Both the position numbers and the translations under genes were made by a program. From IMG/VR virus record IMGVR_UViG_3300035701_000002: 64,000 nt of DNA; one strand, 5' to 3'. The stretch's first letter is position 1. The number at the start of each line of letters is the position of its first letter. Shown piece by piece: positions 2,323 through 58,713 of this stretch. The DNA comes from a virus. The notes under the pieces were generated by a model. The model saw only the letters and a program-made list of their open reading frames with translations. It was not told where the DNA came from and did not search any database.

Positions 2323-2365
2323 GTCGAGAGCGCCCATCAAAGGCCTCGCGAATGTCTTATCCGGG

Positions 2366-4360: not shown

Positions 4361-4572
4361 TGAGGGTGTCCGCCAGGACCGGGCATCACTGGATGGTAAG
4401 GGTCCGGTTCATCGGGGATGGGGAGGAGTGGAACGTCGTCTACTGCGCCCGGTGCGGACACGAGATGAACATGAACTATCCGCCGCCGGACGACTGGCTG
4501 GACGTCCTGACGATGACGAAGATCCCTCCGTCGTGCGACGAAAACGCGGTCCTCAGGGTGATGGAGGACTAG
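4360..4572 (+). CDS. small zinc-ribbon protein, HDW/CxxC paralog family, C-terminal tail LRVMED
   Basis: 70 aa with ...GHHW...EEWNVVYCARCG...PSC... and tail AVLRVMED*. Its ATG overlaps the stop of the GT51 gene (ATGA). Confidence 0.5.
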   Translation: MRVSARTGHHWMVRVRFIGDGEEWNVVYCARCGHEMNMNYPPPDDWLDVLTMTKIPPSCDENAVLRVMED

Positions 4573-4853
4573 CGGGAGTAGTCGAGGACCCGGGCGGACG
4601 GGTCCGTCCCGGAGGCGACCCTGCCCATGGCGTCCTTGAAGGCCTTGCGGTCCATGACGTCCACCGGCGAGGCAATGGCGGGCGACAGCCGCCGGCCCCC
4701 GCCGCCAGGGATGCGGGCGGGCATGGCGGCGTCCTTGACCTGGAGGAGGAGGCGCTTCATCTCGGCGGCCACGGCGGCAACGCTCGGACGGCCGGACTCG
4801 TCGATCCCGTCGGCGAGAAGCCTGAGTCTTCGGGAGAGCTCGTCAGGGGTCAT
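4569..4853 (-). CDS. hypothetical protein (94 aa)
   Basis: ORF with normal composition, convergent with the 4360 gene. Confidence 0.4.
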   Translation of the reverse strand: MTPDELSRRLRLLADGIDESGRPSVAAVAAEMKRLLLQVKDAAMPARIPGGGGRRLSPAIASPVDVMDRKAFKDAMGRVASGTDPSARVLDYSR

Positions 4854-4868
4854 GAAGGACCGTACCCG

Positions 4869-5672: not shown

Positions 5673-5688
5673 GTCTGACCGTACCCGG

Positions 5689-6078
5689 TCATAGGCGGGC
5701 GACGAGCCTGGCAAACCGCTTCCTGAGATTCCTACGGGTACGCACCACGGCCCTGGGCCGGAGATCGTGCTCCCAGAGGACCCAGACGGTCCATCCGAGG
5801 CAGCGGAGCTCGCGGCGCGTCCTCCGGTCGCGAAGGACGTTCTTCCGGAGTTTGTCCTTCCAGAAGGCGACGTTGGACTTGGGCTTGCTCCCATGGAGAG
5901 GACAACAGTGCCAGAAGCAACCATCGATGAACAATGCCAGTCGGAGAGAGTAGACGACGACGTCGGGGGAGCCGGGGAGCGATGGGACGTTTAGGCGAAG
6001 ACGCCGCCCGGACAGCTCCCTCACTAGCTTTCGGAAGGCCACCTCGGGCTTGGTCCCGGAGGACCTGATCCGGGACAT
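5689..6078 (-). CDS. vsr: very-short-patch-repair-type (Vsr) DNA mismatch endonuclease
   Basis: MSRIRSSGTKPEVAFRKLV...LPGSPDVVVYSLRLALFIDGCFWHCCPLHGSKPKSNVAFWKDKLRKNVLRDRRTRRELRCLGWTVWVLWEHDL matches the Vsr family pattern. Start taken at Met 6078. Confidence 0.7.
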   Translation of the reverse strand: MSRIRSSGTKPEVAFRKLVRELSGRRLRLNVPSLPGSPDVVVYSLRLALFIDGCFWHCCPLHGSKPKSNVAFWKDKLRKNVLRDRRTRRELRCLGWTVWVLWEHDLRPRAVVRTRRNLRKRFARLVARL

Positions 6079-26368: not shown

Positions 26369-26565
26369 GACTCCTGGACGTCAAGGACGGCATGAAGGTC
26401 GTCCTCCATGGACTCGACATGAGCCTGGAGGTCCTGGTAAACGGTCTTACAGACAGGACAGAGCGAGTCGAGCCTACGCCGGCCTCTCTTGACGTCCGAG
26501 AGCCTGATCGTCGGATTCGCCGCCAGTTCGAACATCGGGACTTCGACCCTGCGGCCCTGGATCAT
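26365..26565 (-). CDS. small CxxC protein (66 aa), tail LDVQES
   Basis: ...LCPVCKTVYQDLQAHVESMEDDLHAVLDVQES*. Confidence 0.35.
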   Translation of the reverse strand: MIQGRRVEVPMFELAANPTIRLSDVKRGRRRLDSLCPVCKTVYQDLQAHVESMEDDLHAVLDVQES

Positions 26566-28364
26566 TCCTCGTCCTTGTCGAACCGGTCGTCTTCCTTTTC
26601 GGTCATCTTCAGGCCTGCGGACTCGGCGATGCGCTTCAGGACGTCCGTCTTCTCGACCGCCTCGTCCCCGGCCTTCGCCAGGACGGTCTTGAGGAACTCG
26701 TTGAACGTCGAGTCGTTCGGCGTGAACATGTCCTTCTTGAGCTGGGAAAGGGCGTCGTCCGAGTCGATGTTCAGAAGATCGAGGATGAAGGAGATCGGCA
26801 GGGATCCCTTCTGGTACAGGTTGAACATGAAGTCCTGCAGCTCAGTGTTGTCGCGGAGCGCGAGGCGCGTAAACTGGAGCTTCGGATACAGAAGGACACG
26901 GTTGCCGAATTCGTCCTCCTCCCAGAATCCCTTCTTCTCCGCCACCGGGGCGAAGAGCTGATCCTCGACGAACTGGGCGATGCTCTCCCGGTAGAGGAGG
27001 TACATCGTGTTCATGACGTCGAGATGAATGCGCTCGCCGGAGTAGGAGGACTCGCCCGTGAGCATTGACTCCGTAATCCGGAGGCCGATGAACAAGAGCT
27101 TGTTGGTGATGTCGTATTCTGTCGAGAGGTCGAGGAGACGGTCACGCGAGCCGATCTCGTCCCAGTGGACCTCGAAGTTCGTGACGATGGAGAAGTCCGG
27201 ATCGATGAGCGCCTGGTCGATCTGATCCCGAAGGTTGTCGGTGTCCGGCTCGGACATCTTGTCCGCCCAGACAATGCGCTTCGGGGTCATCGCGCGGGAG
27301 GCGATGGACGTCTGGGCTTGACGGAGCTTGTCCTGATAGAGGAGAGTCCTCAGGCAGCGTTCGAGAAGAGAAATCCCGCGGTCGTCGTACGCCGACTTCT
27401 TGTGCGAAAGATGGTAGCAGAAGGACGAGCAGAGGAAGTCGTCGTACGGGTTCGTGTTGAGCGGAATCGGCTGGCCGTTCAGGAGCTGCTCACGGATCTG
27501 CTCCGGGATGTCCTCGGCGATGCGGGCGGCCTCCTGATCCCCCTGCTCCTGCGCCTTCATGACGACGATCCTGTCCTTCTCGGACGGGATGAGCTCCATC
27601 TTGACGCGGTTCGTGTACTGGAAGACCTCGAGCTTCACCTGCTCCGGAGGGAGGATCTGGAGGCGCTCCCATCCGCGGTAGTGGGAGGCAACGTACTCGC
27701 GGATCGCCTTGGCCTGCTCGCTCTCGGGCTTCGGCTCCCTCTTGCGCTCCACGCGCTTCCGGGCACGGCCGGCATAGTCCACCTCGGCGATCTCTTCCTC
27801 CTTGACGTCGGAAAGCATGTCCTCGTCGATGTCGGACGTGAGGTCATGATCCTCGCAGAAGATGAAGCAATTCCCGTGGAGCCAGTACTCATGCGTCGCG
27901 TCGTAGAGAGTCTGGAAGAGGCGGACCCTCTTGCACATCTGCTCATAGAAGTGCAAGATCTGCTTGTTCCGCCTCAGGTCCTTCCCCTTGGGGAGGGACA
28001 GACGGATCTTCGACATCGGCACGTCGGTGTGGAAGTCGATGGCCGCGCCGACGATCGGGTGCGTCGTGTACCAGAACCGGAAGAGCTCGCGCTTCTCGCG
28101 CTCGGACTGGGGGAGCTCGAGGAAGTCTGTGGAGAGCTGGGGGCTGTAGAAGGCGGAGTCGGCGTTGGCCGTGGCGCCGCCGCCGGCGTTCCCGAAGTTG
28201 CCGCCGAAGGCCGCAACGCGTATGGACTGGGCTTGCTCTCTGCGGGCAAGCTTCTCCAGCTTCGTCATGCGGTTCTTCGGACGAGCCTGTTCATCAACGC
28301 GGACGACAGGCAGGTCGTTCTTGACCTGCATAACCGGGCGTACGCCGACCTTCTTCTTAGTCAT
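26562..28364 (-). CDS. portal protein (600 aa)
   Basis: Size, acidic C-terminus, and position between the large terminase and the head genes. Confidence 0.6.
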   Translation of the reverse strand: MTKKKVGVRPVMQVKNDLPVVRVDEQARPKNRMTKLEKLARREQAQSIRVAAFGGNFGNAGGGATANADSAFYSPQLSTDFLELPQSEREKRELFRFWYTTHPIVGAAIDFHTDVPMSKIRLSLPKGKDLRRNKQILHFYEQMCKRVRLFQTLYDATHEYWLHGNCFIFCEDHDLTSDIDEDMLSDVKEEEIAEVDYAGRARKRVERKREPKPESEQAKAIREYVASHYRGWERLQILPPEQVKLEVFQYTNRVKMELIPSEKDRIVVMKAQEQGDQEAARIAEDIPEQIREQLLNGQPIPLNTNPYDDFLCSSFCYHLSHKKSAYDDRGISLLERCLRTLLYQDKLRQAQTSIASRAMTPKRIVWADKMSEPDTDNLRDQIDQALIDPDFSIVTNFEVHWDEIGSRDRLLDLSTEYDITNKLLFIGLRITESMLTGESSYSGERIHLDVMNTMYLLYRESIAQFVEDQLFAPVAEKKGFWEEDEFGNRVLLYPKLQFTRLALRDNTELQDFMFNLYQKGSLPISFILDLLNIDSDDALSQLKKDMFTPNDSTFNEFLKTVLAKAGDEAVEKTDVLKRIAESAGLKMTEKEDDRFDKDEE

Positions 28365-29076: not shown

Positions 29077-29310
29077 TCAGGACTCTTGAACGTGCTGGAC
29101 GTAAACGTCGGCGCACGTCAGGCCTTTCTCCCCGGGGGCGGGACCGCTAACCCCTCGCTTCTGGGAGAAGGGCTTGGGGAGAACCACGAGCATGTGGGCG
29201 GGAGGCTGAACCTTGCTGATGCGGACGCACTGGCAGCGAGAGCACACCCAGGTCGTGTCCTTGGTCGGAAAGGGCCTAGTCCAATCGTGATCCGCGGGCC
29301 GGAGACTCAA
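29077..29310 (-). CDS. small zinc-ribbon protein (77 aa), HDW/CxxC paralog, tail VQHVQES
   Basis: ...ADHDWTRPFPTKDTTWVCSRCQC...LTC...VYVQHVQES*. Confidence 0.5.
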   Translation of the reverse strand: MSLRPADHDWTRPFPTKDTTWVCSRCQCVRISKVQPPAHMLVVLPKPFSQKRGVSGPAPGEKGLTCADVYVQHVQES

Positions 29311-31253
29311 CGACCCCTCCCGCGGGGGGCGGACCTTATCGACGTGCCGCCGATACCGGCGTGAAGCCTGTTCCGCATCCTGTGGAACTGGTTATATCCG
29401 TAGCGCGGGGAGTGCGTGGAGGACTGGGCGACGTGTCCGCGGGAGGAAGCCTCAAGAATCCCCGGGTTCTCTCGTATGTACTCGCTGGCCAGTAGGACGG
29501 ACCGAGCGAGCGCGTCCGACTGGTCGTCGTGCTTCCCGACGACCTTCGGGGCCTCGACGATGACTATGTTCTTGCCCGCAGAGGTCGCCTGGAGCTCCAG
29601 AAGCTCGGCAATGAGAGGGGAGTGGCGAGTCCCGGCCCCGTCCTGCGAACCGGCGGGTATCGGCCAGTCGTATATGGCCAGCTGGCGGTTGAACATCATC
29701 ATCTTCAGCGTCTGGTACATCTGAGACGAGTCCGAGGCGAAGAAGTTCCGCATCTCGAACTGGCGAAGCTGGCGCTTATGGAGGACCTGCTCGAACACAG
29801 GACCGGCCCACTGGTCGAAGACGCCCTTGTGTATGTAGAAGAGCTTGGAGAGGGCGAGGAACCACCCGGCCATCTCGTCAATGTCGAGCCTCTGGGTGTC
29901 CTGAAGGTTCAGGGCGTAGGGGACGAGCGGTGCGGAAAGGTGCGGATTCGACTCCTTCCAGCTCCTCTTCGGATACCAGACCTCGTGGTACGCCAGCTTT
30001 ATCTTCCCGTCACTGAGGTGGGTCAGGGCGATCGAGGTTCCGTCGTTCGAAAGACCAAAGTCGACCCCGGCCCAGTGCGGGTCCCTCGGAAGACCGCGGA
30101 CGGCGGGACGCATCTCCGGGACAATGCAGTCGGACAGGTCCTTCCAGTCCTCGATCCAGCCACGGACGCGGTCCGAAAACTCGGCTCCATGCTCCGTCAT
30201 GAAGGACTTCGGATCTTTGGCGTACTCGGTCTCGTAGTACTCACTAGAGAGAGTCGGGTTGACCTCCCAAGTCGGGGCTTGGATGACCAACATGGACTCG
30301 GAGGCCTTGTCCATGGACATGGCCATCTGGTACATGCGGTACAAAAAACCCTCCCGGGCATCCGGGGAAGAGATCAGGATCATGCGGCCCTCGGACGGGC
30401 CGACGGGCTTATGCTTGTTCTTCGGGTCCTTCGGGGAGAACTGGGCGAGGGACGGAAATATGGCCTTATAGACGCGCTCGGCCGAGCTCTTCCCGTCGTC
30501 CACGAAGAACGCGATCTCGTCGAGGATGGCGCAGATGATGCCGCGCCCGCGCAGGCCCTTGGCGATGGAGCTCTTGAACGTGGCCGTTACCGAGGCCTTC
30601 CCGTTGTCCCCGAACTTCTTCCGGTCGCCCTCGGTGCGAAAGCGGACGTACGTCTGAGTCGTGTTGGCGATGCTGTTCTTGAAATAGTCGACGGCCTCGA
30701 CGTGCGACTGCATGTCGCCGTAGACGATGGACGCCTGCTCTTTGTCGTTCGCGATGCAGAGAACGCGGATTTCGGAGCCCGGTATAAGGCCGTAGAACGA
30801 CTGGGGGGAGCCACGACGAAGAAGCTTGTAGAGCTCGTACGAGGCGAAGATGGCGGACAGGGCGCTCTTCCCGGACCTGCGTCCAAGGACCAGGATGAGC
30901 TCCCGGCGATGCTTCCCGTCCTGCTCCCTGACGTTGCAGCGTCCATGGTCGTACAGATACCTGAGGTACTCGGCCTCCGTGAACTCATGGAGGACTTTCT
31001 CGCCGAACCTGTCAGTGATCCGGATGGACTTGTCGACGTCGTCGAGCAGTATGTTATAGTATAGCTTGACGATGAAGCGCTGTACGGGGTAAAGACCGTA
31101 CGGGAGGAGCTTGAACTTATCGATGAACTCGATGATCGTCAGGAACTCGGTGTCCCCGTCGGAACCGCCGCTCTTCGCCTGGCGCTTCTCGTCTATGAAA
31201 GAGGTTATCTCGCTGACGAGAGTCGGTCTGAACACGGGCTCGCGTATGGGCAT
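29307..31253 (-). CDS. terminase large subunit
   Basis: Walker A LVLGRRSGKS and Walker B ICAILDEIAFF. 648 aa with a C-terminal nuclease-sized domain. Confidence 0.85.
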   Translation of the reverse strand: MPIREPVFRPTLVSEITSFIDEKRQAKSGGSDGDTEFLTIIEFIDKFKLLPYGLYPVQRFIVKLYYNILLDDVDKSIRITDRFGEKVLHEFTEAEYLRYLYDHGRCNVREQDGKHRRELILVLGRRSGKSALSAIFASYELYKLLRRGSPQSFYGLIPGSEIRVLCIANDKEQASIVYGDMQSHVEAVDYFKNSIANTTQTYVRFRTEGDRKKFGDNGKASVTATFKSSIAKGLRGRGIICAILDEIAFFVDDGKSSAERVYKAIFPSLAQFSPKDPKNKHKPVGPSEGRMILISSPDAREGFLYRMYQMAMSMDKASESMLVIQAPTWEVNPTLSSEYYETEYAKDPKSFMTEHGAEFSDRVRGWIEDWKDLSDCIVPEMRPAVRGLPRDPHWAGVDFGLSNDGTSIALTHLSDGKIKLAYHEVWYPKRSWKESNPHLSAPLVPYALNLQDTQRLDIDEMAGWFLALSKLFYIHKGVFDQWAGPVFEQVLHKRQLRQFEMRNFFASDSSQMYQTLKMMMFNRQLAIYDWPIPAGSQDGAGTRHSPLIAELLELQATSAGKNIVIVEAPKVVGKHDDQSDALARSVLLASEYIRENPGILEASSRGHVAQSSTHSPRYGYNQFHRMRNRLHAGIGGTSIRSAPRGRGR

Positions 31254-47316: not shown

Positions 47317-48165
47317 TCAGAATCCTTCAAGGTCGAACATCGAGTTCTCGATATATCCGCCCCCAGTCTCCTTGCGACGGTGGGCTATGTGCTTCCGGCC
47401 TTCCTCGCACTTGTCCTTGTAGCTGCAACGGTGGCACTCGCCGGAAGGGGTGGCGTCGAAAGACTTCAGCTGGATCTTCTTGGCTACGTCGAAGGTCTGG
47501 TCGACGGAGGCCCGCATCGCCTGGCTGTCGTATGCGACCCACTTGATCGGGTCGTCAGGGAATGACCAGAAGAGAAACCCGATCTTGGTCGGGGCCACCC
47601 GGTATTTGATGTAGTGCTGTACGGCGTACCAGATAAGCTGTTCGGCGTCGACATACTTCTCCCTGTGTTTGCTCGCCTTCCCGTCGACGATGGAGACGTC
47701 CCGCATGTCCGGACTATGGATGAAGTCGGCGCGGCCCCCAAGTTTTATGGACATCCCATACTTGTCGTTCCCGTACAGGACGGTCAGGTCAACCTCGGCG
47801 CGGCTGTTGACCGTGAGGAGCCCGAGCTTCCTGATGGTTTCGACGCCCGGCGGGATGTAAAGGAGCATGTCCTGGCGGGTCATCATGCGGAACCCCGGAT
47901 CTGTCGAAGGATCGAGCTTCTCCTCACGAAGGACGGAGTCCAGTGCGTCGTCAACGACTGCGAGGCAGGCGGCGACCGGGTCAGGCTCCGCCCACAGCTT
48001 CCTGTCGTAGAACCATTGGAACACGCGTCCGATGGCGGACCCGAAGATGGACCCGCGCGGGTCTCCGCGGCTCTTGTCCTTGAGGATGTACCTATACTTG
48101 TACTGGAGGGGGCACACCAGGTAGGACTTACGTCCGGAGTAGCTCAGGTAGATATCGTAGGACAT
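47317..48165 (-). CDS. PD-(D/E)XK nuclease of the RecB/Cas4 type with Cys cluster
   Basis: N-terminal LVCPLQYKYRYI (Cas4/RecB-type). C-terminal ECHRCSYKDKCEE Cys triad. 282 aa. Confidence 0.55.
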   Translation of the reverse strand: MSYDIYLSYSGRKSYLVCPLQYKYRYILKDKSRGDPRGSIFGSAIGRVFQWFYDRKLWAEPDPVAACLAVVDDALDSVLREEKLDPSTDPGFRMMTRQDMLLYIPPGVETIRKLGLLTVNSRAEVDLTVLYGNDKYGMSIKLGGRADFIHSPDMRDVSIVDGKASKHREKYVDAEQLIWYAVQHYIKYRVAPTKIGFLFWSFPDDPIKWVAYDSQAMRASVDQTFDVAKKIQLKSFDATPSGECHRCSYKDKCEEGRKHIAHRRKETGGGYIENSMFDLEGF

Positions 48166-48176
48166 CAGGTCGGACT

Positions 48177-49166
48177 CTACTCGTCGAGGACTCCGGCCTC
48201 GGCGGCCTCGAGGGTGGACAGGGCTAGCTTTCTGAGATCGTCAGGATATCCGTCGAGCTCCTTCTTGCGAGCCTCCATGGAGGACTCGGACGCCATGTCG
48301 GCATTGCTCCGGAGCTGAGATATGAAGTCGTCCAAGGACCTTCGTTCCTCGTCCAGGCGCTTCTTCCTGTCCAGGTCAAAAACCTGGGAGGCGTCCTCGT
48401 GAGGGACGACATGCTCTTCGACGTAGATGCCCGTAGAGTCGGCCTTGATCAGAGAGACCTTGGGCTTACGGTCCATATTCTCGAACGTAAGGGCCCCCCT
48501 GGATATGGCTCCGAGGTTCACGAACTTGACGCCTAGGTGCTCGACGACCCCCTGATCCTTGTGATAGTGGCCGAACACATAGACGTCGGGGCATCCGTCG
48601 AACACGAGGTCACGGTAGTCGAAGACGCGCTCGTTGAAGAACGATTGGATGCGCTCCTCCGGGGCCATGGCTGCGAGGGCGTGAACGAACGCGACCGTGT
48701 ACGTCTCGTCCTTCTTCCTGACGAGGTCGTGTATGCCGTCCACGTCGATGTCGGTCGTGTACGGGACGCCGACGACGCGGAGCTTCATGCTCCCGGAGAC
48801 GAACGTTTCGTCGCGCATGGGCTTGAACACGCCGGACTCGAACATGACGCCAAGGGGCTGCCCGGGGACTGAGTCGGGGTCGTTGTTCGACATGTCGTGG
48901 TTCCCGGGCATGGCGAACGTCGGACAGGGGTACTTGCGGTGGATGCGGGCGGCCATCGCCATGGTCCGCATGGTCGTCTTGTTCGCGGCCTTCACGTGGA
49001 AGAAGTCGCCGCCGCGGAGGACGGCGTCGGCCTTGAACCGCCTGGCCATGTCGCCCTGCCACTCGATCTTCTGGAGAATCGAGGCCCGGTAGTCGTCCTT
49101 CCTGAAGCCCGGGGCGAGATCTGCGAGGTGCTCGTCGGAGGAGGTCAAGAGGCGAATTTCGGACAT
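48177..49166 (-). CDS. sbcD: SbcD/Mre11-family nuclease (calcineurin-like phosphoesterase)
   Basis: Phosphoesterase motifs LLTSSDEHL, GGDFFH, GNHD, GHYH. Confidence 0.75.
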   Translation of the reverse strand: MSEIRLLTSSDEHLADLAPGFRKDDYRASILQKIEWQGDMARRFKADAVLRGGDFFHVKAANKTTMRTMAMAARIHRKYPCPTFAMPGNHDMSNNDPDSVPGQPLGVMFESGVFKPMRDETFVSGSMKLRVVGVPYTTDIDVDGIHDLVRKKDETYTVAFVHALAAMAPEERIQSFFNERVFDYRDLVFDGCPDVYVFGHYHKDQGVVEHLGVKFVNLGAISRGALTFENMDRKPKVSLIKADSTGIYVEEHVVPHEDASQVFDLDRKKRLDEERRSLDDFISQLRSNADMASESSMEARKKELDGYPDDLRKLALSTLEAAEAGVLDE

Positions 49167-49175
49167 GCGGGCATT

Positions 49176-49841
49176 TTACACCGCGGGCTCGCCCTTGAGC
49201 GCGTACTGGAACGAGACAGTCAGGCCGAAGGACGCCTTTCCCGGCTCCATGCTGACGCCGGACAGGGCCTGATGAGAGTTCGAGGCCGAGAGAGTCTTTC
49301 CGCTGACCTGGCGCTCTTCGTCGATATCCCAGGAGACGACCTCGTACGAGTCGGCGGACAGGCCGGCGGAGGCGCACTGGTTGGAGAACATCTTCTTGGC
49401 CTTGTCGAAGGCGTCGGAGAAGGCCTTGTGGTGGACCTCGATGCTCTCATCCACGTTGAAAACGGGCGTGGGGCTCTCGACGCCGACGATGCTCGTGATC
49501 GCGTCGTGGAGCGCGGTGGCCTCGGAGACGTTCTTGGCCGTAAAGGACATCGTGTACATAGCCTTGTATCCGACGAACTTGTACTCGGAGCCGGTGTGCT
49601 GATGGTCGGCGTCGACGGAGAAGGTCGTCCTGATATGGTCCTTGTCGACGCCAGCGCGCTCGGAGAAATCGCGGACGACGCCCCATATGAGGTCGACGCG
49701 CTCCTTGGCCTTGTCCTTGGCCTCCGGACCGGTGGCGCCCTTGGTGTTCACACTGGCCCTGAAGGACGTCGAGCGGAACACGGTGTCCGCGATCCCGGCA
49801 GCCCTGACTTCGATGGTCCTCGGTTCGTGGAAGTGTCGCAT
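49176..49841 (-). CDS. hypothetical protein (221 aa)
   Basis: ORF with normal composition. Confidence 0.5.
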   Translation of the reverse strand: MRHFHEPRTIEVRAAGIADTVFRSTSFRASVNTKGATGPEAKDKAKERVDLIWGVVRDFSERAGVDKDHIRTTFSVDADHQHTGSEYKFVGYKAMYTMSFTAKNVSEATALHDAITSIVGVESPTPVFNVDESIEVHHKAFSDAFDKAKKMFSNQCASAGLSADSYEVVSWDIDEERQVSGKTLSASNSHQALSGVSMEPGKASFGLTVSFQYALKGEPAV

Positions 49842-49865
49842 GCCGGAGGGTACACCGGCCGGGCC

Positions 49866-50312
49866 TCAGTCGTCGAAGCAGCCTCCGCAGTCGAGGCTGG
49901 CACGGACCTTCGGGCCCGGGATGGGAACGTCCTTCCTGACGTACCAGTTCCCATCGTCTCCCTTGGACACGAACTTTGCGCACGTGTGGCAGAGGCCGCC
50001 GTCAGGACTGTCGATGCTGCCGACGGGCCCGATGACGGGCTCCACGCCGCAGAATCCGAAGCGATTCTCGCTCCAGGGGCCGTTCTTCTTCTTGACGACC
50101 GCATGGCAGGGGGAATGGCCACCGCTGTCGTAAATGAAGGCCGCCTGGACGCCGGCGACGGGCGACGAGTCCTCGACCGTCACCTTCCTCACCAAGATTT
50201 TGCGGCGGGTAGAGGAATGGCCAACGCGCTCTTTCACGCGCATCATCATCTGCGCGTCCGTGACGTCGTCGGGCGCCTCCACCTCGACAGTCATGCGGAA
50301 CTTTCGACTCAT
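49866..50312 (-). CDS. hypothetical Cys-rich protein (148 aa)
   Basis: Cys/His-rich segments SPCHAVV, CHTCAKF, CGGCFDD. Confidence 0.45.
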   Translation of the reverse strand: MSRKFRMTVEVEAPDDVTDAQMMMRVKERVGHSSTRRKILVRKVTVEDSSPVAGVQAAFIYDSGGHSPCHAVVKKKNGPWSENRFGFCGVEPVIGPVGSIDSPDGGLCHTCAKFVSKGDDGNWYVRKDVPIPGPKVRASLDCGGCFDD

Positions 50313-50334
50313 GGGGAGAGCTTACGCTCGAGCC

Positions 50335-52623
50335 TCATGCCACATCCTCAGTCACCTCGTCGGGCAGATCAGATACGTCCGGGGAAGCGAGGACCCCGGA
50401 GTCGGCCGGATGGACGAACTCGTGGACGAGCTCCTTCAGGCGGGAGTTCCGGACGGTCTCACGGTCGTTCATGATTGCGAACGAAAACGCCCGCGGGTCT
50501 CCGAAGACGAACACCTTCTTCTTGGCGCGCGTGAGGGCCGTGTATATGAGGTTCCGGTAGAGCATGATGCCGTACTGCATGGTCATCGGAAGAAGGACAT
50601 AGTCGAACTCCTGACCCTGAACCTTATGGGCGGTGCAGGCGTAGGCGACCTTGAGGACGTTCCGAGCCTCCTCGACCTTGAAGGTGAAAACCTTGTCCAC
50701 ATACCTCGGGACCGGGGACTCGTTGTCGAACCAGTCGAAGATCTTCACCTCGACCTCGTCCTGCTTCACCGAGATCCGCTGAATCTTCCCGACCTCCCCG
50801 TTGAAGATCATGCGGTCATAGTCGTTCCGGATTACCATGACCCGGTCGCCCTCGTAGAGGTCGACGCTCCCGCTCTTCAGCTTCCCGGACTTCCCGGACG
50901 AATAGTCCGGGTTCAGGACGTCCCTGAGAGTCCTATTCAGGTTGTTCACGCCAAGGTCGCCGTCGTACATGGGGGCGATGACCTGGAAGATCTTCTCCTT
51001 GGACTTGAGCATCGAGGCCATCTTGGAGATCTCCTCGACGACCTGATCCTTCGGGTAGGAGAGAAAGATGAACTCGGAGTCCTTGTTGAAGCGGGTGTCG
51101 ACGGCGTCCCCGCGAAGGATGGAGTGAGCCACGGAGACGATGTCCGAGGTCTTCTCCTGCCGGTAGATGCGGGTGAGGGCCACATGGGGGACGTCGGGGC
51201 ACCTCATCAGGTTGTTCAGAACATACCCGGCGCCGACCGACGGGAGCTGCGCGGAGTCCCCAACCATGATGACGATGGTCGTCGGAGGCAGGGACGAGAC
51301 AAGATGGAAGAAGGTAGAGCCGTCCACCATCGACATCTCGTCCACGATGACCGCATCGCAGAAGAACTTGTTGCCAGCGTTGTTGGTCCAAGAGCCGTCA
51401 CGGCCATATCCGAGGGATCTGTGGATCGTGGAAGCAGGGCGCCCGGTCACCTGCGAAAGACGCTTTGAGGCGATGCCGGTCGGGGACATCAGCACGTAGT
51501 GCAGGTTGAACTTCTCGAACAGATGGACGAAGGCCGATATGAGGAGCGTCTTCCCGGTCCCGGGGAAGCCCGACACGACGCATACCCTGGACTTCCCCAT
51601 CATGAAGAATGACTGACGCTGTTCGTCGGACAGGGCCAAACCGTGCTTCTTCTCGAACTCCTCGAGGACGGCCTCAAGGTCGCCGAACTCCCTGGGCTCC
51701 TGGGAGACGAACTTGGAAAGGCAGTCAGCCGACTGCGACTCGTTCCACCAGTTGCGATGAAGGTATATGTGCGTCCCGTCGGAGACTACGGCGTCGGACT
51801 TCTGAAGCTCAGAAAGTGCAGTGAAGAAGTGCGAGTCCGACATGTACTCGCCGTGGGTGAACGGATCGAGAGAGTGAACCCTGAACATCCGCTTCGAGAC
51901 GTAGTCCAGAATCTGGCGGGAGGTGCAGTACATATGGCCCTCCGAAGCGGAGAGCTCGGACATGGCGAACTCGACCATAGCCCTTACGCGCCTCGGATCG
52001 TCCACCCCTATCCCGAGCTTCCTGGAGGCGGAGTCGGCGGTAGGGAAGCCGACGCCTTCGCACCTGTGAAGGCAGTAAGGATCGGCCCGGATGGCGTCCC
52101 TGGCCTCCTTCACACCGAGCTTCGTGATGACGCTCTTCACCTGGAAGGAACTCAGGCCCAGGTCGGTCAGGAATATCGCGGTGGTCCGGTTCTCGGACGC
52201 CTGGGCCCACTCGTTGATGATGGCGTCAGCCTGGCGCTCCTGAAGGAAGCTGAGCTCCCGTATCTTCTCCGGCTCCTTATCCAGGACCTCGACGAGCTGG
52301 TCCCCGAGGGCCTCATAGAGGCGGGAGGCGGTGATGGGTCCGATGGACGGAACATTGGCCTGAAGGTAGGCGATGATGCCGTTCCTGCCCTTCTCAGGAA
52401 GGATCTCGCAGCTGGCGGCCGCCAGCTGCCGGCCGTAGGTCGGGTGCTCCTCGAACTTCCCGACGAACTTCGCCTTCAGGCCGATGTTCACGGCCACACC
52501 AGGGAAGCTCCCGCGCACGGTCAGACTGCCAGAAGAGCCGTCCTGCACGGCACGCAGCACATAGAAGCCCGTGCTCCGGTTAGAGAAAACGATCCCGGAA
52601 ATTTTAGCGGTAATTTCGTCCAT
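50335..52623 (-). CDS. recD: RecD-like (RecD2/Dda-type) superfamily-1 DNA helicase
   Basis: Motif I GFPGTGKT, motif II VIVDEMSMVD, and VGDSAQLPSVGAG. C-terminal YACTAHKVQGQEFDYV. Confidence 0.8.
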   Translation of the reverse strand: MDEITAKISGIVFSNRSTGFYVLRAVQDGSSGSLTVRGSFPGVAVNIGLKAKFVGKFEEHPTYGRQLAAASCEILPEKGRNGIIAYLQANVPSIGPITASRLYEALGDQLVEVLDKEPEKIRELSFLQERQADAIINEWAQASENRTTAIFLTDLGLSSFQVKSVITKLGVKEARDAIRADPYCLHRCEGVGFPTADSASRKLGIGVDDPRRVRAMVEFAMSELSASEGHMYCTSRQILDYVSKRMFRVHSLDPFTHGEYMSDSHFFTALSELQKSDAVVSDGTHIYLHRNWWNESQSADCLSKFVSQEPREFGDLEAVLEEFEKKHGLALSDEQRQSFFMMGKSRVCVVSGFPGTGKTLLISAFVHLFEKFNLHYVLMSPTGIASKRLSQVTGRPASTIHRSLGYGRDGSWTNNAGNKFFCDAVIVDEMSMVDGSTFFHLVSSLPPTTIVIMVGDSAQLPSVGAGYVLNNLMRCPDVPHVALTRIYRQEKTSDIVSVAHSILRGDAVDTRFNKDSEFIFLSYPKDQVVEEISKMASMLKSKEKIFQVIAPMYDGDLGVNNLNRTLRDVLNPDYSSGKSGKLKSGSVDLYEGDRVMVIRNDYDRMIFNGEVGKIQRISVKQDEVEVKIFDWFDNESPVPRYVDKVFTFKVEEARNVLKVAYACTAHKVQGQEFDYVLLPMTMQYGIMLYRNLIYTALTRAKKKVFVFGDPRAFSFAIMNDRETVRNSRLKELVHEFVHPADSGVLASPDVSDLPDEVTEDVA

Positions 52624-52644
52624 AGTCCGCAGGGGCCTAGTTGA

Positions 52645-53463
52645 TTAGGGGTCGCTCCTCGGAGCGCCAAGGTCCATCATACGGTAGAGGTCCGCCTCGG
52701 ATATTACATCGACACCGTGCTTCTTGGCGCTCTTCATCTTCGAAGAGCCGGTGTCCGGATCGTTCGTAACGAGGAAGCTGGTGCCGGCTCCGACGGACCC
52801 CTTCGAAACTCCGCCGGAGTCCATTATCATCTTCTCGATGGCCTTCCTCGGCCTTGAGGTCGACCCGGTGATACAGAAGGACTTTCCGGACATCGGCCCG
52901 AGGGCCGGCCCTTTGACGTCAAGGACAGCGGCCAGGTCCAGGATCGACTGCCTGCGTGACTCGAGGCCCTCAAGGACCTGGCGTGCGGTCACTTCCCCGA
53001 CGTTCGGGACCTTCAGAAGGTCGTCGTTCGTCATGGAAAGGACCTTATCGACTGTGTCGAAACCGGCCTGGACGATGTCGGTGGCGGTCGCGACGGCGAG
53101 GTTCGGGATGTTGAGGGACGCTATCAGGAGCTCGAGGGTCACTGACTTGCTGGCATGGAGAACGTCGTGGCATTTCTGGGCGAACTTCGTCCCAGAAGAA
53201 CACGCGGCTATGTCCTCCACGGAGAGCCTGTAGAGGTCGGCTACGGAGGCGACCCTAGGGTCGTCAGGATCGGTAAGCCGGTCCACGAGGGCGTCACCCC
53301 AGTGAAGAAGGCCGAGCCTCTTAATCCAGACACGGACGGAGCCGGAGAGCTGGACGGGGCACGACCGGCTGCGGCAGTATAGAAAGTCTCCCTCCTCGGA
53401 GGCGGGGCCTCCGCAGACGGGGCAGCAGTCGGGGACGGGAAAGAGCTCCTGAAGGCCTTCCAT
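52645..53463 (-). CDS. ligA: NAD-dependent DNA ligase, C-terminal fragment (Zn finger + HhH + BRCT) encoded as separate gene
   Basis: Zn module CCPVCGGPASEEGDFLYCRSRSCP, helix-hairpin-helix segment, and BRCT GKSFCITGSTSRPRKAIEKMIMDSGGVSKGSVGAGTSFLVTND. No adenylation domain. Confidence 0.7.
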   Translation of the reverse strand: MEGLQELFPVPDCCPVCGGPASEEGDFLYCRSRSCPVQLSGSVRVWIKRLGLLHWGDALVDRLTDPDDPRVASVADLYRLSVEDIAACSSGTKFAQKCHDVLHASKSVTLELLIASLNIPNLAVATATDIVQAGFDTVDKVLSMTNDDLLKVPNVGEVTARQVLEGLESRRQSILDLAAVLDVKGPALGPMSGKSFCITGSTSRPRKAIEKMIMDSGGVSKGSVGAGTSFLVTNDPDTGSSKMKSAKKHGVDVISEADLYRMMDLGAPRSDP

Positions 53464-53499
53464 GGTCCGAGTTTACACGGACCGGACGAAGACTTTCGG

Positions 53500-54015
53500 T
53501 TACTCCTCTTCCTTCTCCCCGACCTCTTCCTCTTCCTCGCCTGCCTCTTCCTCTTCCTCGCCGGCACCCTCTTCGAGCTCTCCGGCCTCTTCTTCGCCCG
53601 CGGGCCCGGGGAACTCGGGGGTGGAGGGGAGCATCTCTTCTCCCTGTCCTCCCCCGCCGCCCTCATCTCCGTAGGTGAACGTCCTGTCCTGCATGTCGTA
53701 CTTGCCCTCGTAGAAGGCCTTCGAGAAGGCAGAGAGCTCCTCACCGATGGTCAGGACGGCCTCGGAGATACGCTCGAGGTTCGAGGACTCCTCGCCGGCG
53801 AAGTCACCCTCGAGCCTGGCGAGCTTGGCGTACAGGACGTGCGCATCCTTCAGGACGTCGGCGATGTAGGAGTGGACCCTCTGCCATTCCGCGTCCTTGT
53901 CGGACGCGGAGACCCTCGAGGCCATGAACTGCTGGACCTCGGCGGCGACGCGCGAGAACCTCGTCCTCCTTCCGGAGGAGGGAACTACGTCTGACGAGAG
54001 GGGATTGCTAGACAT
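53500..54015 (-). CDS. hypothetical protein with poly-Glu C-terminus (171 aa)
   Basis: ORF ends EEEEAGEEEEEVGEKEEE. Confidence 0.45.
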   Translation of the reverse strand: MSSNPLSSDVVPSSGRRTRFSRVAAEVQQFMASRVSASDKDAEWQRVHSYIADVLKDAHVLYAKLARLEGDFAGEESSNLERISEAVLTIGEELSAFSKAFYEGKYDMQDRTFTYGDEGGGGGQGEEMLPSTPEFPGPAGEEEAGELEEGAGEEEEEAGEEEEEVGEKEEE

Positions 54016-54064
54016 GATGGCTCCTGGACCTCTACCGGGCCGGTGACAAAGGGCCTATGAGGGA

Positions 54065-55201
54065 TTGAAGAGCTCAAGCGTACGTTACGGGATGAGCGTA
54101 GAGAGGATCTTAGAGCTGCGTGAGAGGCTCAGGGCAGCCCGAGAGGGGTACTATAACCTAGCGCCGGCGATCTCGGACCAAGAGTATGACGCCCTGAAGG
54201 ACGAGCTCTCCAAGCTCGCCCCCGACGACGACGAGGTGGTGGCCGTCGGGGCGCCGGCGCCACAGTTCTCCGTCTGGGAGAAGGTCCGGCACGAGATCCC
54301 GATGGGGTCGCTCTCCAAGGCGAACACGGAGGCCGAGTTCGACGAGTGGTCGGCCAGGGCCGCCGGAGCGGGGGCCGAGACTCTGTACATCACGCACAAG
54401 ATCGACGGGTCGTCGATGGAGCTCGTCTACAAGGCCGGGAAGCTTACGAGGTGCGTGACGCGAGGGGACGGGAAGGTAGGGGAGGACGTCACGGCGAACG
54501 TGTCGAAGGTACCGTCGGTCCCGAAGAGGCTATCCGTCCCGGTCGACCTGACCGTCCGCGGGGAGATCGTCATGTTGAAGTCCGTCTTCGCCGAGAAGTA
54601 CGCGGCGGAGTATGCGAACCCGAGGAACACGGCCGCGGCCAAGGTCCGGGAGAAGAAGGGCGGCGGGGAGGCCTGCAGGGACCTCGAGTTCCTGGCGTAC
54701 TGGATGAGCGTCCCGGAGGACCTGCCGAAGACGTTGTTCTTCGCGATGAAATGGCTGTCCAACCACGGCTTCAGGGTCCCGGAGGGGACAGCGTGCGGGG
54801 ACGCCGGGGACGTGAAGAAGGTCTTCGCCAGCACCACGGCGTCGAGGGACGCCGTCCCGTACGAGATAGACGGGATGGTGGTCACGGTCAACAACCTCAA
54901 GGTCCTCGAGGAGATGGGGGATCTAAACATGCGGCCGCGCGGGCAGATTGCGTGGAAGTTCGACGCCGCGATGGGCGAGTCCAGGGTCGTTGACGTGAGG
55001 TGGCAGGTCGGACCTTCGGGCCGCATCACCCCGGTGGCTTCCATCGAGCCCGTGGACATCGGCGGGGTGACCGTCACGAGCGTATCCCTGCACAACATCT
55101 CCCTGTTCCGAGAGCTCGCCCTCACCAGAGGGTGCAGGGTCCTGGTCTCGAGGAGGAACGACGTCATCCCGTACATCGAGAAGAACCTGGACGCTGCCTA
55201 G
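54065..55201 (+). CDS. ligA: NAD-dependent DNA ligase, N-terminal fragment (Ia + adenylation + OB domains) encoded as separate plus-strand gene
   Basis: Motif I ITHKIDGSSMEL (KxDG), motif IV EIDGMVVTVN, motif V IAWKF. Ends after the OB fold, with no Zn/HhH/BRCT. Confidence 0.75.
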   Translation: MKSSSVRYGMSVERILELRERLRAAREGYYNLAPAISDQEYDALKDELSKLAPDDDEVVAVGAPAPQFSVWEKVRHEIPMGSLSKANTEAEFDEWSARAAGAGAETLYITHKIDGSSMELVYKAGKLTRCVTRGDGKVGEDVTANVSKVPSVPKRLSVPVDLTVRGEIVMLKSVFAEKYAAEYANPRNTAAAKVREKKGGGEACRDLEFLAYWMSVPEDLPKTLFFAMKWLSNHGFRVPEGTACGDAGDVKKVFASTTASRDAVPYEIDGMVVTVNNLKVLEEMGDLNMRPRGQIAWKFDAAMGESRVVDVRWQVGPSGRITPVASIEPVDIGGVTVTSVSLHNISLFRELALTRGCRVLVSRRNDVIPYIEKNLDAA

Positions 55202-55437
55202 CCCTCGGTCTTCACGACCATCTTCTCGATGGCCTCGATCGCGTCGAACGAGATACACGTGAGGCGCACCTTCTTGCCGGCCAGGGACTTGAGGAGCTCC
55301 TGCGTGGAGAAGGCCTTCCCGTCGTCGTCCACGACCACATACTCGCCGGTGGCCCCGTCCAGCACAACCTCGCCGTCGATGATGTTCCCGGCGTCGTACC
55401 CATAGAGGTTCCTATCCCGGGCGTTGTCGTAGTCCAT
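55198..55437 (-). CDS. hypothetical small protein (79 aa)
   Basis: Internal Met MDYDNARDR of ORF 55198..55710; the N-terminal Arg/Gly/Pro stretch is rejected. Confidence 0.35.
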   Translation of the reverse strand: MDYDNARDRNLYGYDAGNIIDGEVVLDGATGEYVVVDDDGKAFSTQELLKSLAGKKVRLTCISFDAIEAIEKMVVKTEG

Positions 55438-55454
55438 GGCCGGACAGTACGGGG

Positions 55455-55781
55455 TCAGCTCGCCATGACGAGCTCGGCCTCGAGGTCCCTGGCCTTGTCG
55501 CAGTCGTCGGCCAGAACCCCGTGGTAGCCCTTGTCGAAGCCGTGCCCCGTCCCGGGGGCGCCGGCGGGGATGGTCCTGTCGGCTAGCTCCTCCTTGCTGA
55601 ACTCGCTGACGTCGTCCATCCATGCCATGGCCACGGTGAGGCGCTTCTGGAAGTCGGACCACCCGTCCGGGAAGAAGACGCGCTTCCGGCACCCGGAGCA
55701 GCGGTGCCACTCCCCGGGCTTACCGGAGCTGCTCCTGGGGTCGGTGCCGCGCTCCTCGAACTTCCAGTCGTGCTCCGTCAT
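55455..55781 (-). CDS. small zinc-ribbon protein (108 aa), HDW/CxxC paralog, tail ELVMAS
   Basis: MTEHDWKFEERGTDPRSSSGKPGEWHRCSGC...DDC...EAELVMAS*. Confidence 0.5.
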   Translation of the reverse strand: MTEHDWKFEERGTDPRSSSGKPGEWHRCSGCRKRVFFPDGWSDFQKRLTVAMAWMDDVSEFSKEELADRTIPAGAPGTGHGFDKGYHGVLADDCDKARDLEAELVMAS

Positions 55782-55797
55782 CCCTGACGGTACACCG

Positions 55798-58713
55798 TCA
55801 GCTGCAGCCGGTCGTGTTCCCGCAGGACGTGCAGAGATAGCACGACCCGTTCCGCTGGGTGATGGAGCCGCACCGGCTGCACGGCGGGGCGTCGAGGCTC
55901 TTCACCCTGACGGACGTGTGGATCTCCACCTCCGTGTCGGACATATGGGAGAACTCTGGGCCGACCGGAGGAGCCGAAGACTGAGGACCGGAGTCCGCGT
56001 CCTTCGTGATGCCTTCCTGGATGTCCTTCTGGGCGTCAAGCTGCTTGAACCTGTCCGCGAGGCCGGAGTGCTCTCCCCCGTAATACCGGTCGTCGAGAAC
56101 CTTGAAAAGATAGTCGAAGATACTCTTGGCGAACCGGATGCGCGGGTTGTTCGTCATCCCGGCGGGCTCGAAGCGCGTGTCGATGAAGCTCGCAATCAGC
56201 TTCGGGAGCGGAATCCCGTACTGAAGGCCGATCGACATCATCTGCGTGAACGCGTCCACGAGGCCGGATATGGTGCTTCCGGGCTTTCCGAGCTTGAGGA
56301 AGACCTCGCCCGGGCGGCCGTCGGGGTACTCGTTGACGACGATGTAGCCCTTGTAGCCGTCGATCAGGAACTTGTGGCGCCAACCGGTGACGTCGGCGGG
56401 AAGCTTCTCCCGCCTCGAGAAAGCGACGGGCTTGGACTTTGACTTGGACTCAGCGTGGCCGATGGAGACAGTCTCATCCTGGAAGAGGGGGACGATGGCC
56501 GGAGGGACGGGCGTGGCGGAGGACGCCTTCGTGGAGAGCGGCTGCGAGGCCTTACAGCCGTCGCGGTAGAGGGCGACGCACTTCAGGCCGAGACGCCAGC
56601 TCTCCTGGTATATGTCGGCGATCTCCTCATGGGTGACGGTCTTCGGGAGGTTGACAGTCTTGCTCTGGGCGCACGTGATGAGGGGCTGGATTGCCGCCAT
56701 CATCTTGATGTGGGCCATCGGGGTGAGGTACCGGTTCGACGTCCCGGACGGCATCGCGCAGTCGAAGACCGGGAGGTGCTCGGACTTGAGGCCGGGAGCC
56801 CCGTCGATAGAGTCGGTGTCCTCGACGTGCTTGCAGATGGAGTCCATGGCGTCTTCGGCGTACCCGAGGCCGCGAAGGGCGTCCCGGACGCTCGAGTTCA
56901 CGAGCTTCATGGATCCGCCGCCGACGAGCGACTTGTACGAGACGAGGGAGAATGCTGGCTCGATGCCGGTCGTGTTCATCCCCATGAGGAACGAGATGGT
57001 GCCGAGCGGGGCCTGCAGAGTGGCCTGAGAGATGCTGTACCCGTACTTCTCGCCGAGAGCGATGACCTCGCTCCAGACATCCGCGGAACGCGAGGCGACG
57101 TCGTCGTCGACAGGGTCCTTCGACTGGTTCCAACGCTGGTTGATGGAGGAGTCGGCCTCCTTGTGCATCCGCATGACGCGGAGCATGTCGTCGCGGTTCT
57201 TGTCGTAGTCCGCGAACGCGCCGACCCTGGCGGCGAGCTTGGCGGACGTCACGTAGACGATCCCGGTCATGAGCGAGGCCATGCGGGCGGCGACGGCGCG
57301 ACCCTCGTCCGAGTCGTAGCCGTACCCGAGCTTCATCAGGAGAGCGCCGAGGTCCCCGTAGTTCGTCCCTATGGGGCGAAGCCTGGTGGAGTTCTCGGAG
57401 ATCTCCTTGGTCGGATAGTCGGCCTTTCCGACTATCGCCATCTGGGCCGTACTGAAGATGCGGGTCGCCTGATGGAACCTGTCGTACGAGAACTTGCGGC
57501 CGTCGAAGAACTTCGTCAGGTTGATCGCGCAGAGATTGCAGGCGGTGTTGTCGACGTGGAGGAACTCGGAGCACGGGTTCGACGCACGGATCTTCCCGTT
57601 CTTGGGCGTCGTGTGCCACTTGTTCATGGTGTCGTTGAACTGGACACCAGGATCGCCGCACGACCAGGCAGCTCGGGCGATCTCCGTCCATAGCTCGCGA
57701 GCCTTGTAGTTGTGCACGACCTTCCCGCTGACGCGCTCCTTGGTCTGCCAGGTTCCGTCGTCGATCACGGCCTGCATGAAAGCGTCGGGGATTGAGACCG
57801 AGTGGTTGGCGTTCTGGTACGCAACGCGCTTGTAAGCGCCGTTCGGGTCGTCGTAGTTCGCGCTATACCCGACAGCAACGAGATCGTGAGCGAGTTTCTC
57901 CTCGGAGGCCTTGCACCGGACGAAGCCAGGGCGGCCGTCCCTGGTCTCGAGGACGTCGGGATGGTCCATGTCCATGACGACCATCTTTGCCGCGTTGCGG
58001 GTCGCACCGCCGGACTTCATGGCGCCGGCGAACTGATCGTTCCCCTTCATGAAGGAAAGAGGGCCGGACGTATAGGATCCGGCCGAGAGCTTCTCGTAGG
58101 AGGAGCGGAGGTTCGAGAGGTTCGCACCGGAGCCGGATCCTCCGCGGAAGATCGTGAGCTCCGACCTCTGGTAGTTCATGATGTCGTCGAGCGAGTCGTC
58201 GACGGACGAAATGAAGCACGCGGAGGCTGCCTGGGCGCGCCCCGGTATCCCGAGGTTGAACCAGACGGGCGAGTTGAAGGCCCCGTACTGGTGGACGAGA
58301 GCGTACAGGAGCTCCTCCTCGTAGGTCCTGGCGTCCTTGTCCGTGTTGAAGTAGTTCTGCTCGACGGCCCAAGCGCAGATCGTGCGGGAGACTCGGAGGA
58401 AGATCTGCCTGACGGAGCTCTCCCGGACGCCGCCGATGACGCGGAAGTACTTGTCGGCGACGACGTTGACGGCGTTCTGGCTCCACCAGGCCGGGACCTC
58501 GACGCTCTTCTGCTCGAAGACAACGTCGCCCTTGGGGCTGCGGATTTCGGCATCCACGATCTTCCACTCGACCTGGTCGAAGGGGTGGACGCCCTCGGTG
58601 GTAAAGACCCTGGGCCAGTGGCCCGCGTCGCGCGACACTTCCTTACCGGCCTGATGTGCCCTCGGCAGATCATATACAGAAGCCGGTGAAACCGCGCTAG
58701 CGACGCTTGACAT
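55798..58713 (-). CDS. nrdJ: class II (adenosylcobalamin-dependent) ribonucleotide reductase with C-terminal zinc ribbon
   Basis: Active-site NPCSEF. C-terminal CSRCGS...CYLCTSCG. About 970 aa. Start placed at Met MSSVASAV to limit overlap with the upstream gene. Confidence 0.85.
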   Translation of the reverse strand: MSSVASAVSPASVYDLPRAHQAGKEVSRDAGHWPRVFTTEGVHPFDQVEWKIVDAEIRSPKGDVVFEQKSVEVPAWWSQNAVNVVADKYFRVIGGVRESSVRQIFLRVSRTICAWAVEQNYFNTDKDARTYEEELLYALVHQYGAFNSPVWFNLGIPGRAQAASACFISSVDDSLDDIMNYQRSELTIFRGGSGSGANLSNLRSSYEKLSAGSYTSGPLSFMKGNDQFAGAMKSGGATRNAAKMVVMDMDHPDVLETRDGRPGFVRCKASEEKLAHDLVAVGYSANYDDPNGAYKRVAYQNANHSVSIPDAFMQAVIDDGTWQTKERVSGKVVHNYKARELWTEIARAAWSCGDPGVQFNDTMNKWHTTPKNGKIRASNPCSEFLHVDNTACNLCAINLTKFFDGRKFSYDRFHQATRIFSTAQMAIVGKADYPTKEISENSTRLRPIGTNYGDLGALLMKLGYGYDSDEGRAVAARMASLMTGIVYVTSAKLAARVGAFADYDKNRDDMLRVMRMHKEADSSINQRWNQSKDPVDDDVASRSADVWSEVIALGEKYGYSISQATLQAPLGTISFLMGMNTTGIEPAFSLVSYKSLVGGGSMKLVNSSVRDALRGLGYAEDAMDSICKHVEDTDSIDGAPGLKSEHLPVFDCAMPSGTSNRYLTPMAHIKMMAAIQPLITCAQSKTVNLPKTVTHEEIADIYQESWRLGLKCVALYRDGCKASQPLSTKASSATPVPPAIVPLFQDETVSIGHAESKSKSKPVAFSRREKLPADVTGWRHKFLIDGYKGYIVVNEYPDGRPGEVFLKLGKPGSTISGLVDAFTQMMSIGLQYGIPLPKLIASFIDTRFEPAGMTNNPRIRFAKSIFDYLFKVLDDRYYGGEHSGLADRFKQLDAQKDIQEGITKDADSGPQSSAPPVGPEFSHMSDTEVEIHTSVRVKSLDAPPCSRCGSITQRNGSCYLCTSCGNTTGCS

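Follow-up and report, generated by a model that had tools for sequence, protein, structure and literature searches.

The NAD-dependent (nicotinamide adenine dinucleotide) DNA ligases of phage T5 and its relatives are annotated as two proteins, subunits A and B (PMC3632103; PMC6813398; PMC4319617). The two genes are adjacent on one strand in Salmonella phage LVR16A and are separated by two small genes in Vibrio phage Javier, and in PDB entries 9hu3 and 9i5i a 'DNA ligase (NAD(+))' of 339 amino acids (aa) is co-deposited with a 'DNA ligase subunit B' of 248 aa, chains that T5-like subunits match at E values of 1e-106 and 1e-79. The present analysis concerns a ligase whose two genes lie on opposite strands, in a 64,000-nucleotide (nt) stretch of viral DNA (IMG/VR virus record IMGVR_UViG_3300035701_000002, referred to here as the window). 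The plus-strand gene, LigN, specifies the nucleotidyltransferase (NTase) half of the enzyme together with the OB fold, and the minus-strand gene, LigC, specifies the Zn-finger, HhH and BRCT half. It is probable that the pair represents a true NAD-dependent ligase encoded by two genes in a clade of huge phages, that it arose by an inversion of about 1.7 kb, and that its halves most likely associate non-covalently.

The resemblance to the T5 type is close at the level of domains. In both cases the division of LigA falls in the linker that joins the OB fold to the Zn finger; the NTase-OB protein has about 320-370 aa, the Zn-HhH-BRCT protein has about 250-270 aa, and both halves are kept. The T5-like subunit A ends '...VIPCIVERVYD' and subunit B starts 'MKIEIPTQCPSCGS'. 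Two PHROGs families, phrog_3359 and phrog_3498, match the window halves end to end. The T5-like genes, however, follow one another as A(+) then B(+) (loci L011 and L012), whereas the window reads C(-) X(-) N(+), X being a small intervening gene. The proteins of the two groups are only 25-30% identical, and fused relatives stand between the groups in the tree, the T5-like sequences falling outside a large set of fused phage LigAs and the clade of the window having fused relatives of its own; the split therefore arose independently.

Relative to canonical LigA (TIGR00575; E. coli LigA, PDB 2owo), the window ligase retains all six modules, with the OB fold, Cys4 Zn finger, HhH and BRCT domains all present across the two halves, and the catalytic, NAD-binding and Zn-binding residues are kept. 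It differs in being made as two polypeptides from two open reading frames (ORFs) on opposite strands, each of which scores below the equivalog cut-off of 444 bits (323 bits for LigN and 121 bits for LigC), and in the residue equivalent to E. coli K290, a feature shared with related fused phage enzymes.

A third point of comparison is provided by phage genes that have been fractured by free-standing homing-endonuclease genes (Dassa et al., 2009; PMC2677866), in which, as here, the split of an essential replication gene falls at a permissive site between domains. In two outgroup huge phages, a gene for a TnsA-like (PD-(D/E)xK) endonuclease is located exactly at the OB-Zn linker of LigA (L077, 7091-7906; L091, 7100-8086); these inserts are 46% identical and divide the ligase into collinear N and C genes that lack inteins. 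The linker is thus the same, but the L077 and L091 halves are collinear around the insert, whereas the window has no endonuclease gene at the junction and its N-half is inverted. Two other ligases considered as collinear splits, those of L060 and L086, were rejected as such, each being a single ORF (631 and 630 aa, respectively). Since the T5 family, L077/L091 and the clade of the window are all divided there, the OB-Zn linker is, on sequence comparison, a recurrent and evidently tolerated fission point, used in at least three independent ways in phages: T5-type collinear splitting, insertion of an endonuclease gene, and inversion. The literature searched, including broad reviews on jumbo-phage replication and on viral NAD systems, contained no description of a LigA split between opposite strands. 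What is new is this arrangement by inversion and its phylogeny; the domain split itself is already known and has been solved in the T5 family.

Two ligase genes and their conservation

LigN aligns with positions 1-379 of the 652-position equivalog TIGR00575 and matches the Pfam families DNA_ligase_aden (PF01653, E 4e-53) and DNA_ligase_OB (PF03120, E 3e-21), as well as the LigA structures 1v9p and 2owo (E 1e-50 to 1e-57). This agrees with the preliminary description of the window, which had assigned an adenylation and OB half to the plus strand from the motifs KIDGSSMEL, EIDGMVVTVN and IAWKF, all of which are present in the ORF. The gene had been placed at 54065..55201; an ORF does exist there, and from the alternative TTG start at 54065 it would encode 378 aa, but the ATG at 54092 is the more likely start, giving the 369-aa protein (P0001) that was called by three gene-calling pipelines (JGI, ENA and Logan).

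The catalytic features of LigN, located by mapping onto E. coli and T. filiformis LigA, are preserved. Nucleotidyltransferase motifs I-V are represented by the invariant residues K103-I-D-G (the KxDG motif with the adenylated lysine), R124, E158, D260 and K289, and all 137 split N-halves compared share K103, D105, G106, R124, E158, R252, D260 and K289. Within domain Ia, E. coli Y22, D32, Y35 and D36 align with LigN Y20, D29, Y32 and D33, and among these NAD contacts Y20, D29 and D33 are likewise invariant (137/137), while Y32 is Y or F. A departure from the E. coli enzyme occurs in motif IV, where T265 of LigN (54884-54886) aligns with K290, a residue that is essential in E. coli. This position is S, T or R in split, fused and outgroup phage ligases alike, for which reason its variation is unrelated to the split, and T265 was dropped as a candidate catalytic defect. 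The residue may reflect a slightly different arrangement of the active site across the whole phage group.

LigC accounts for the remainder of the enzyme. It aligns with TIGR00575 positions 387-652, contains matches to the Pfam families BRCT, HHH_5 and HHH_2, and corresponds to residues ~402-669 of the structures 1dgs and 2owo; it also matches chain 9hu3_B, 'DNA ligase subunit B' (E 5e-10). The Zn-binding cysteines C14, C17, C30 and C35 and the HhH and BRCT signatures are invariant in all standalone LigC homologs compared (37/37). The earlier statements that the Zn-finger, HhH and BRCT half lies on the minus strand and that neither half carries the domains of the other both hold.

The opposite-strand layout is not confined to a single assembly. 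An N-half identical to that of the window occurs on 12 contigs from at least seven samples, assembled by ENA/MEGAHIT, Logan and JGI, and the order RecD2(-) LigC(-) X(-) LigN(+) S80(-) ... RNR(-) is found on each of the 12 that is long enough, RecD2 being a helicase-like protein, S80 a small conserved gene and RNR a ribonucleotide reductase. About 22 further distinct IMG/VR contigs have the split layout with N-halves 51-68% identical to that of the window, and the layout is also present on JGI, ENA and Logan contigs of 393, 436 and 377 kb, respectively. Standalone N-halves (362-400 aa) and standalone C-halves (258-299 aa) each form more than 100 protein clusters, which come from the same long contigs, and LigN and LigC are 1-3 kb apart in all split loci examined. 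For annotation, this suggests that isolated 'NTase-OB only' and 'BRCT/HhH only' genes of huge phages are best paired as one ligase rather than labelled truncated or misassembled.

Synonymous sites between relatives are saturated, and nonsynonymous divergence (dN) is 0.12-0.34, with LigN, LigC and X conserved to the same degree as RecD2. The low dN, together with the invariant catalytic, NAD-binding and Zn-binding residues, shows at the level of sequence comparison that both genes are under selection for a ligase-type function. Because both halves are intact and co-conserved and there is a T5-type precedent, the best reading is a two-subunit enzyme assembled in trans, as one of the alternatives offered in the preliminary description had it. 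LigN would perform NAD-dependent self-adenylylation and catalysis, LigC would supply the Zn/HhH clamp on DNA and the BRCT domain, and nicks would be sealed by the two together, which is also the presumed mode of action of the T5-type subunit A/B enzyme. We infer in the same way the physical assembly of LigN with LigC, the nick-sealing activity and the pattern of transcription. Several points weigh against this reading: LigN-LigC binding and nick sealing are argued from sequence comparison and analogy with T5, the halves belong to separate transcription units on opposite strands so that stoichiometric co-expression is not guaranteed, and LigC has no Shine-Dalgarno sequence.

It is also conceivable, if rather unlikely, that the halves have separated in function, LigN acting alone as a minimal NAD ligase or adenylyltransferase and LigC serving as an independent DNA-binding, BRCT-containing scaffold with X and RecD2. 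The separate transcription units would suit such a division, as would the conserved box that LigN has upstream and the operon-like arrangement of LigC with X and RecD2 (spacers of 6-38 nt). Yet N and C remain close together in all split loci examined and are equally conserved, every ligase-specific residue is kept in both halves, including those of the Zn finger and HhH domain, and the T5 halves were deposited as a complex. Domain-deletion work on LigA from the Shuman laboratory and from Timson and Wigley reportedly found that NTase-OB fragments self-adenylylate and seal nicks poorly when the Zn and HhH domains are missing, which also argues against an independent LigN.

Inversion relative to fused relatives

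Five ligases of the same clade, from four lineages, are fused enzymes of 630-657 aa that keep the same catalytic and domain Ia residues as the split N-halves. All five occur in the order RNR(+) S80(+) X(-) LigA(+) RecD2(+), which in the orientation of the window becomes RecD2(-) LigA(-) X(+) S80(-) RNR(-); the sole difference from the window is that the unit formed by the N-half of LigA and X is flipped. X shares 67-70% identity with the ORF that diverges from the fused ligA of L006 and L008, and both X and S80 are homologous across split and fused arrangements (E 1e-34 to 1e-42). The glutamate-rich ORF that separates the window halves is therefore the gene divergent from fused ligA, and the inversion model passes its direct synteny test. 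The proposal that an inversion had split an ancestral ligA is in this respect supported by the suggested comparison with the ligA of related phages, the rare fused relatives displaying the unflipped order.

The position of the break is consistent with the same relationship. When concatenates of LigN and LigC are aligned to fused proteins, the break falls within the linker, between '...NDVIPYIExNLD' at the end of the OB fold and 'F.IP..CP.C', where the Zn finger begins, without loss of residues; LigN ends 2-8 residues past the OB fold and LigC starts 3-10 residues ahead of the Zn finger. In outgroup huge phages with 37-43% identity, recD2 likewise comes after a single ligA in the same orientation, as in fused members of the clade, sometimes with S80 just upstream, and no X is detectable in those outgroup phages with a single ligA. 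Because these distant phages have a single ligA followed by recD2, the fused, collinear gene is, judging from gene order, the ancestral state overall.

The event can be pictured as the inversion of a block of about 1.7 kb comprising the 5′ half of ligA and its divergent neighbour X. One breakpoint would lie in the flexible OB-Zn linker, and the other at the 3′ end of X, beside S80. LigN would have kept its original upstream control region and would now be the only plus-strand gene in the module; it is the only credible plus-strand gene from ~38 kb to 64 kb, as expected from its earlier depiction as an island in a minus-strand run. LigC would have gained a start codon of its own, 36 nt downstream of X and ahead of RecD2. 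It would follow that an essential multi-domain replication enzyme can be cut at a linker by inversion and stay functional over a long evolutionary time.

Only part of the idea of one inversion event stands, namely the inversion relationship itself, as the history within the clade is not one simple flip and involves at least three changes of state. A neighbour-joining tree of N, C and RecD2 (1323 columns, 42 loci) recovers the clade with a bootstrap value of 100%; within it, split L027 and fused L008 are sisters (bootstrap 100), and split L017 joins fused L100 and L101 (bootstrap 82) in a larger group whose support is 98. The two gene forms are thus phylogenetically interleaved, and since the split forms are not monophyletic, more than one change of state is indicated. 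As recombination of the flanks could mimic such interleaving, the flipped block alone (N and X) was re-tested, and the Fitch count was at least three changes in 299 of 300 bootstrap trees; at least three were also counted in 200/200 trees of 144 N-halves of the clade. The block seems, on this basis, to have undergone at least three flips or re-fusions. Under parsimony, the split state would be ancestral within the clade and about four re-fusions would have followed, the alternative being ten or more independent fissions.

Repeated flipping of LigN with X, toggling an essential enzyme between one-chain and two-chain forms and perhaps triggered by homing-endonuclease breaks at the linker, is offered here as a tentative proposal. 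The trigger, double-strand breaks made by endonucleases that target the linker, is speculative and would be suggested only by L077 and L091. Other considerations tell against the recurrent scenario: the trees are neighbour-joining trees of saturated, star-like data; support from the N and X block for individual fused/split sister pairs is only 66-88%; gene conversion between arrangements could blur the history; and a search of the window and of 22 split loci revealed no repeats that would mediate recurrent flipping. The junction sequences leave both directions, repeated fission and re-fusion, standing, with no internal methionine scar in the fused linkers and with tails too short to show the direction of change. 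Were recurrent flipping true, each flip would also change which gene, X or LigN, opposes the direction of transcription of the module. If confirmed, it would supply a natural series of matched one-chain and two-chain ligases, useful for examining the role of the covalent OB-Zn link in clamp closure around nicked DNA and for following how viral gene fission and fusion proceed.

Repeated changes of state at the same two junctions would also be expected of a programmed, switchable inverton that flips within phage populations and restores the fused gene in some genomes, and as in intragenic invertons and Hin/Gin-type segments, an inversion end inside a coding sequence alters the protein products. 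Such a mechanism nevertheless appears highly improbable. Unlike Hin/Gin-type segments, the block is bracketed in the window by no detected inverted repeats, only imperfect repeats at background level, and each state is a fixed trait of diverged lineages, with no switching inside a single genome. When the 3′ end of LigN was aligned locally with the LigC 5′ region, no similarity emerged in 22 split loci (z ~0), and on these two results a repeat-mediated inverton was rejected. Moreover, the stop codon of LigN and the separate start codon of LigC mean that a simple re-inversion would not restore a single ORF; one orientation is seen in all 12 independent assemblies of the window phage; and fused and split forms are ~40% diverged in protein and hence are not variants of one population. 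The ORFs scanned near the block included no identifiable recombinase, in a neighbourhood search that was not exhaustive.

Post-translational joining of the halves by a split intein has a precedent in phage replication genes, which are often fractured in this way (PMC2677866), and an intein does occur in the RNR of relative L098, but the junction alignment reveals no extra sequence at the end of LigN or the start of LigC, leaves no room for intein halves, and makes this explanation negligible. An assembly or scaffolding artefact, named in the preliminary description as a possible refutation, or a decaying, pseudogenised ligase can be dismissed with equal assurance, given identical layouts in the ENA/MEGAHIT, Logan and JGI assemblies of one phage and in about 22 diverged relatives, intact ORFs with invariant catalytic residues, and a ratio of nonsynonymous to synonymous divergence far below 1.

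Junctions, neighbouring genes and expression signals

The coordinates of the ligase genes, the two inversion junctions and the flanking genes are collected in Table 1.

Table 1. Features of the split-ligase locus (positions in the window)
Feature	Position	Strand	Basis or remark
LigN: NAD-dependent DNA ligase N-half (domain Ia, adenylation/NTase domain, OB fold), 369 aa	54092..55201	+	Pfam, TIGR00575, PDB
LigC: ligase C-half (Cys4 Zn finger, HhH domain, BRCT), 272 aa	52645..53463	-	Pfam, TIGR00575, PDB
X: conserved 171-aa protein	53500..54015	-	no Pfam/PHROG match; 167 homologs
Divergent X/LigN control region	54016..54091		box CAAAGGGCCTA at 54047-54057; GTA at 54080-54082
X-LigC spacer, the putative inner inversion junction, 36 nt	53464..53499	-	TGTAA at -13 from the LigC ATG
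Putative outer inversion junction	55198..55201		palindrome CTAG shared by the overlapping stop codons of LigN (+) and S80 (-)
S80: small conserved gene, 79 aa, flank of the inverted block on the RNR side	55198..55437	-	homology, gene calls
RecD2-like helicase, directly downstream of LigC, fixed flank	50335..52623	-	Pfam AAA_30, HHH_RecD2, SH3_13, OB_YrrC; synteny
Class II ribonucleotide reductase (RNR), fixed flank on the other side	55798..58713	-	Pfam on called genes of identical contigs; synteny

X, the poly-Glu ORF of the preliminary description, has a coding-type GC content at third codon positions (0.83). Searches of Pfam and PHROG yielded no match, and its homologs are all unannotated and specific to the clade. 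A highly conserved core of ~75 aa is followed by a Pro/Gly-rich stretch and then by a strongly acidic, Glu-rich tail that is predicted to be disordered. The AlphaFold2 model contains helices at residues 19-69 and 75-102 that form a helical hairpin (pLDDT ~95), for which Foldseek found no fold match in the PDB, its only hits being generic helical hairpins, all at E above 0.8. X is always divergent from LigN, moves with it in the inversion, and lies directly upstream of LigC in split genomes; any role as ligase partner or DNA mimic is purely speculative.

At the inner junction, a hairpin GGTCCG-TGTAAACT-CGGACC (53464-53483) encloses the TGTAA sequence, and in 20 of 22 split loci LigC starts 6-38 nt past the stop codon of X. 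At the outer junction, the overlap of stop codons leaves no spacer or terminator between the head-on convergent LigN and S80. S80 is homologous to L006_78 and L008_85, occurs in nearly all loci, and is collinear in split and fused genomes. Extra DNA is found in or at the edge of the flipped block in several split relatives, between X and LigN in L018 and L066 (~2 kb) and in L019, L029 and L031 (0.5-0.7 kb), and between X and LigC in L036/L042 (0.8 kb); the junction regions are therefore also insertion hot spots. In the fused-ligase relative L098, the class II RNR (1836-5855, 1339 aa) contains an intein with a LAGLIDADG endonuclease, and the RNR of the window has no intein.

Two kinds of sequence element accompany the ligase genes. 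The box CAAAGGGCCTA, ~35 nt upstream of the LigN start, occurs as a single exact copy in the window and, with at most two mismatches, lies upstream of LigN in 13 of 26 loci of the clade, split and fused, as compared with 1.3% of random windows; it probably acts as a promoter or operator specific to this gene and moves together with the N-half. A scan of 52.4-55.9 kb for sigma-70 promoters and terminators found nothing in the divergent spacer between X and LigN. The second element, (T/C)GTA(A/C), is present in 18 of 21 distinct LigC leaders with its G at -12 to -14 from the start codon, and none of 22 LigC leaders contains a Shine-Dalgarno sequence. In some cases the element occupies a short hairpin loop. 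The GTA at 54080-54082 is at -12 from the LigN ATG.

Across the window, (T/C)GTA(A/C) with its G at -13 or -12 precedes 10 of 47 genes, against ~0.7 expected by chance. It stands at a fixed distance before LigN and eight consecutive replication-module genes; within the module (47317-55781) the start codons concerned are at 48165, 49166, 49841, 50312, 53463, 54092, 55437 and 55781, and the eight consecutive element-bearing genes all lack a Shine-Dalgarno sequence. Further copies are associated with positions 15119, 28764 and 31842. The element might represent a -10-like element serving near-leaderless mRNAs, a site of RNA processing, or a translation signal of a non-Shine-Dalgarno type. Given this element, the short spacers and the LigN box, LigC has the appearance of an ordinarily signalled member of an X-LigC-RecD2 unit, and LigN that of a gene under separate control.

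Relatives of the window were found on IMG/VR and metagenome contigs of 240-436 kb, in a lineage with a GC content of ~63%, and DNA-level searches of deposited phages returned no match nearly identical to the window, which is therefore without a cultured relative; on both grounds, the source is an uncultured huge-phage lineage. Proteins encoded in the window include a large terminase (29307-31253), a portal protein (26562-28364), a prohead protease and an HK97-like capsid protein, and the replication genes of the window include a clamp loader and FEN in addition to the RecD2 helicase and class II RNR. Two other genes are unusual large accessory genes of this phage: a 779-aa VWA-domain protein (8198-10537, minus strand), matching the function-unknown family phrog_2426 end to end (E 5e-185), and an 814-aa ORF (1916-4360, plus strand) with a glycosyltransferase-51 (PBP-type transglycosylase) domain at its C-terminus.

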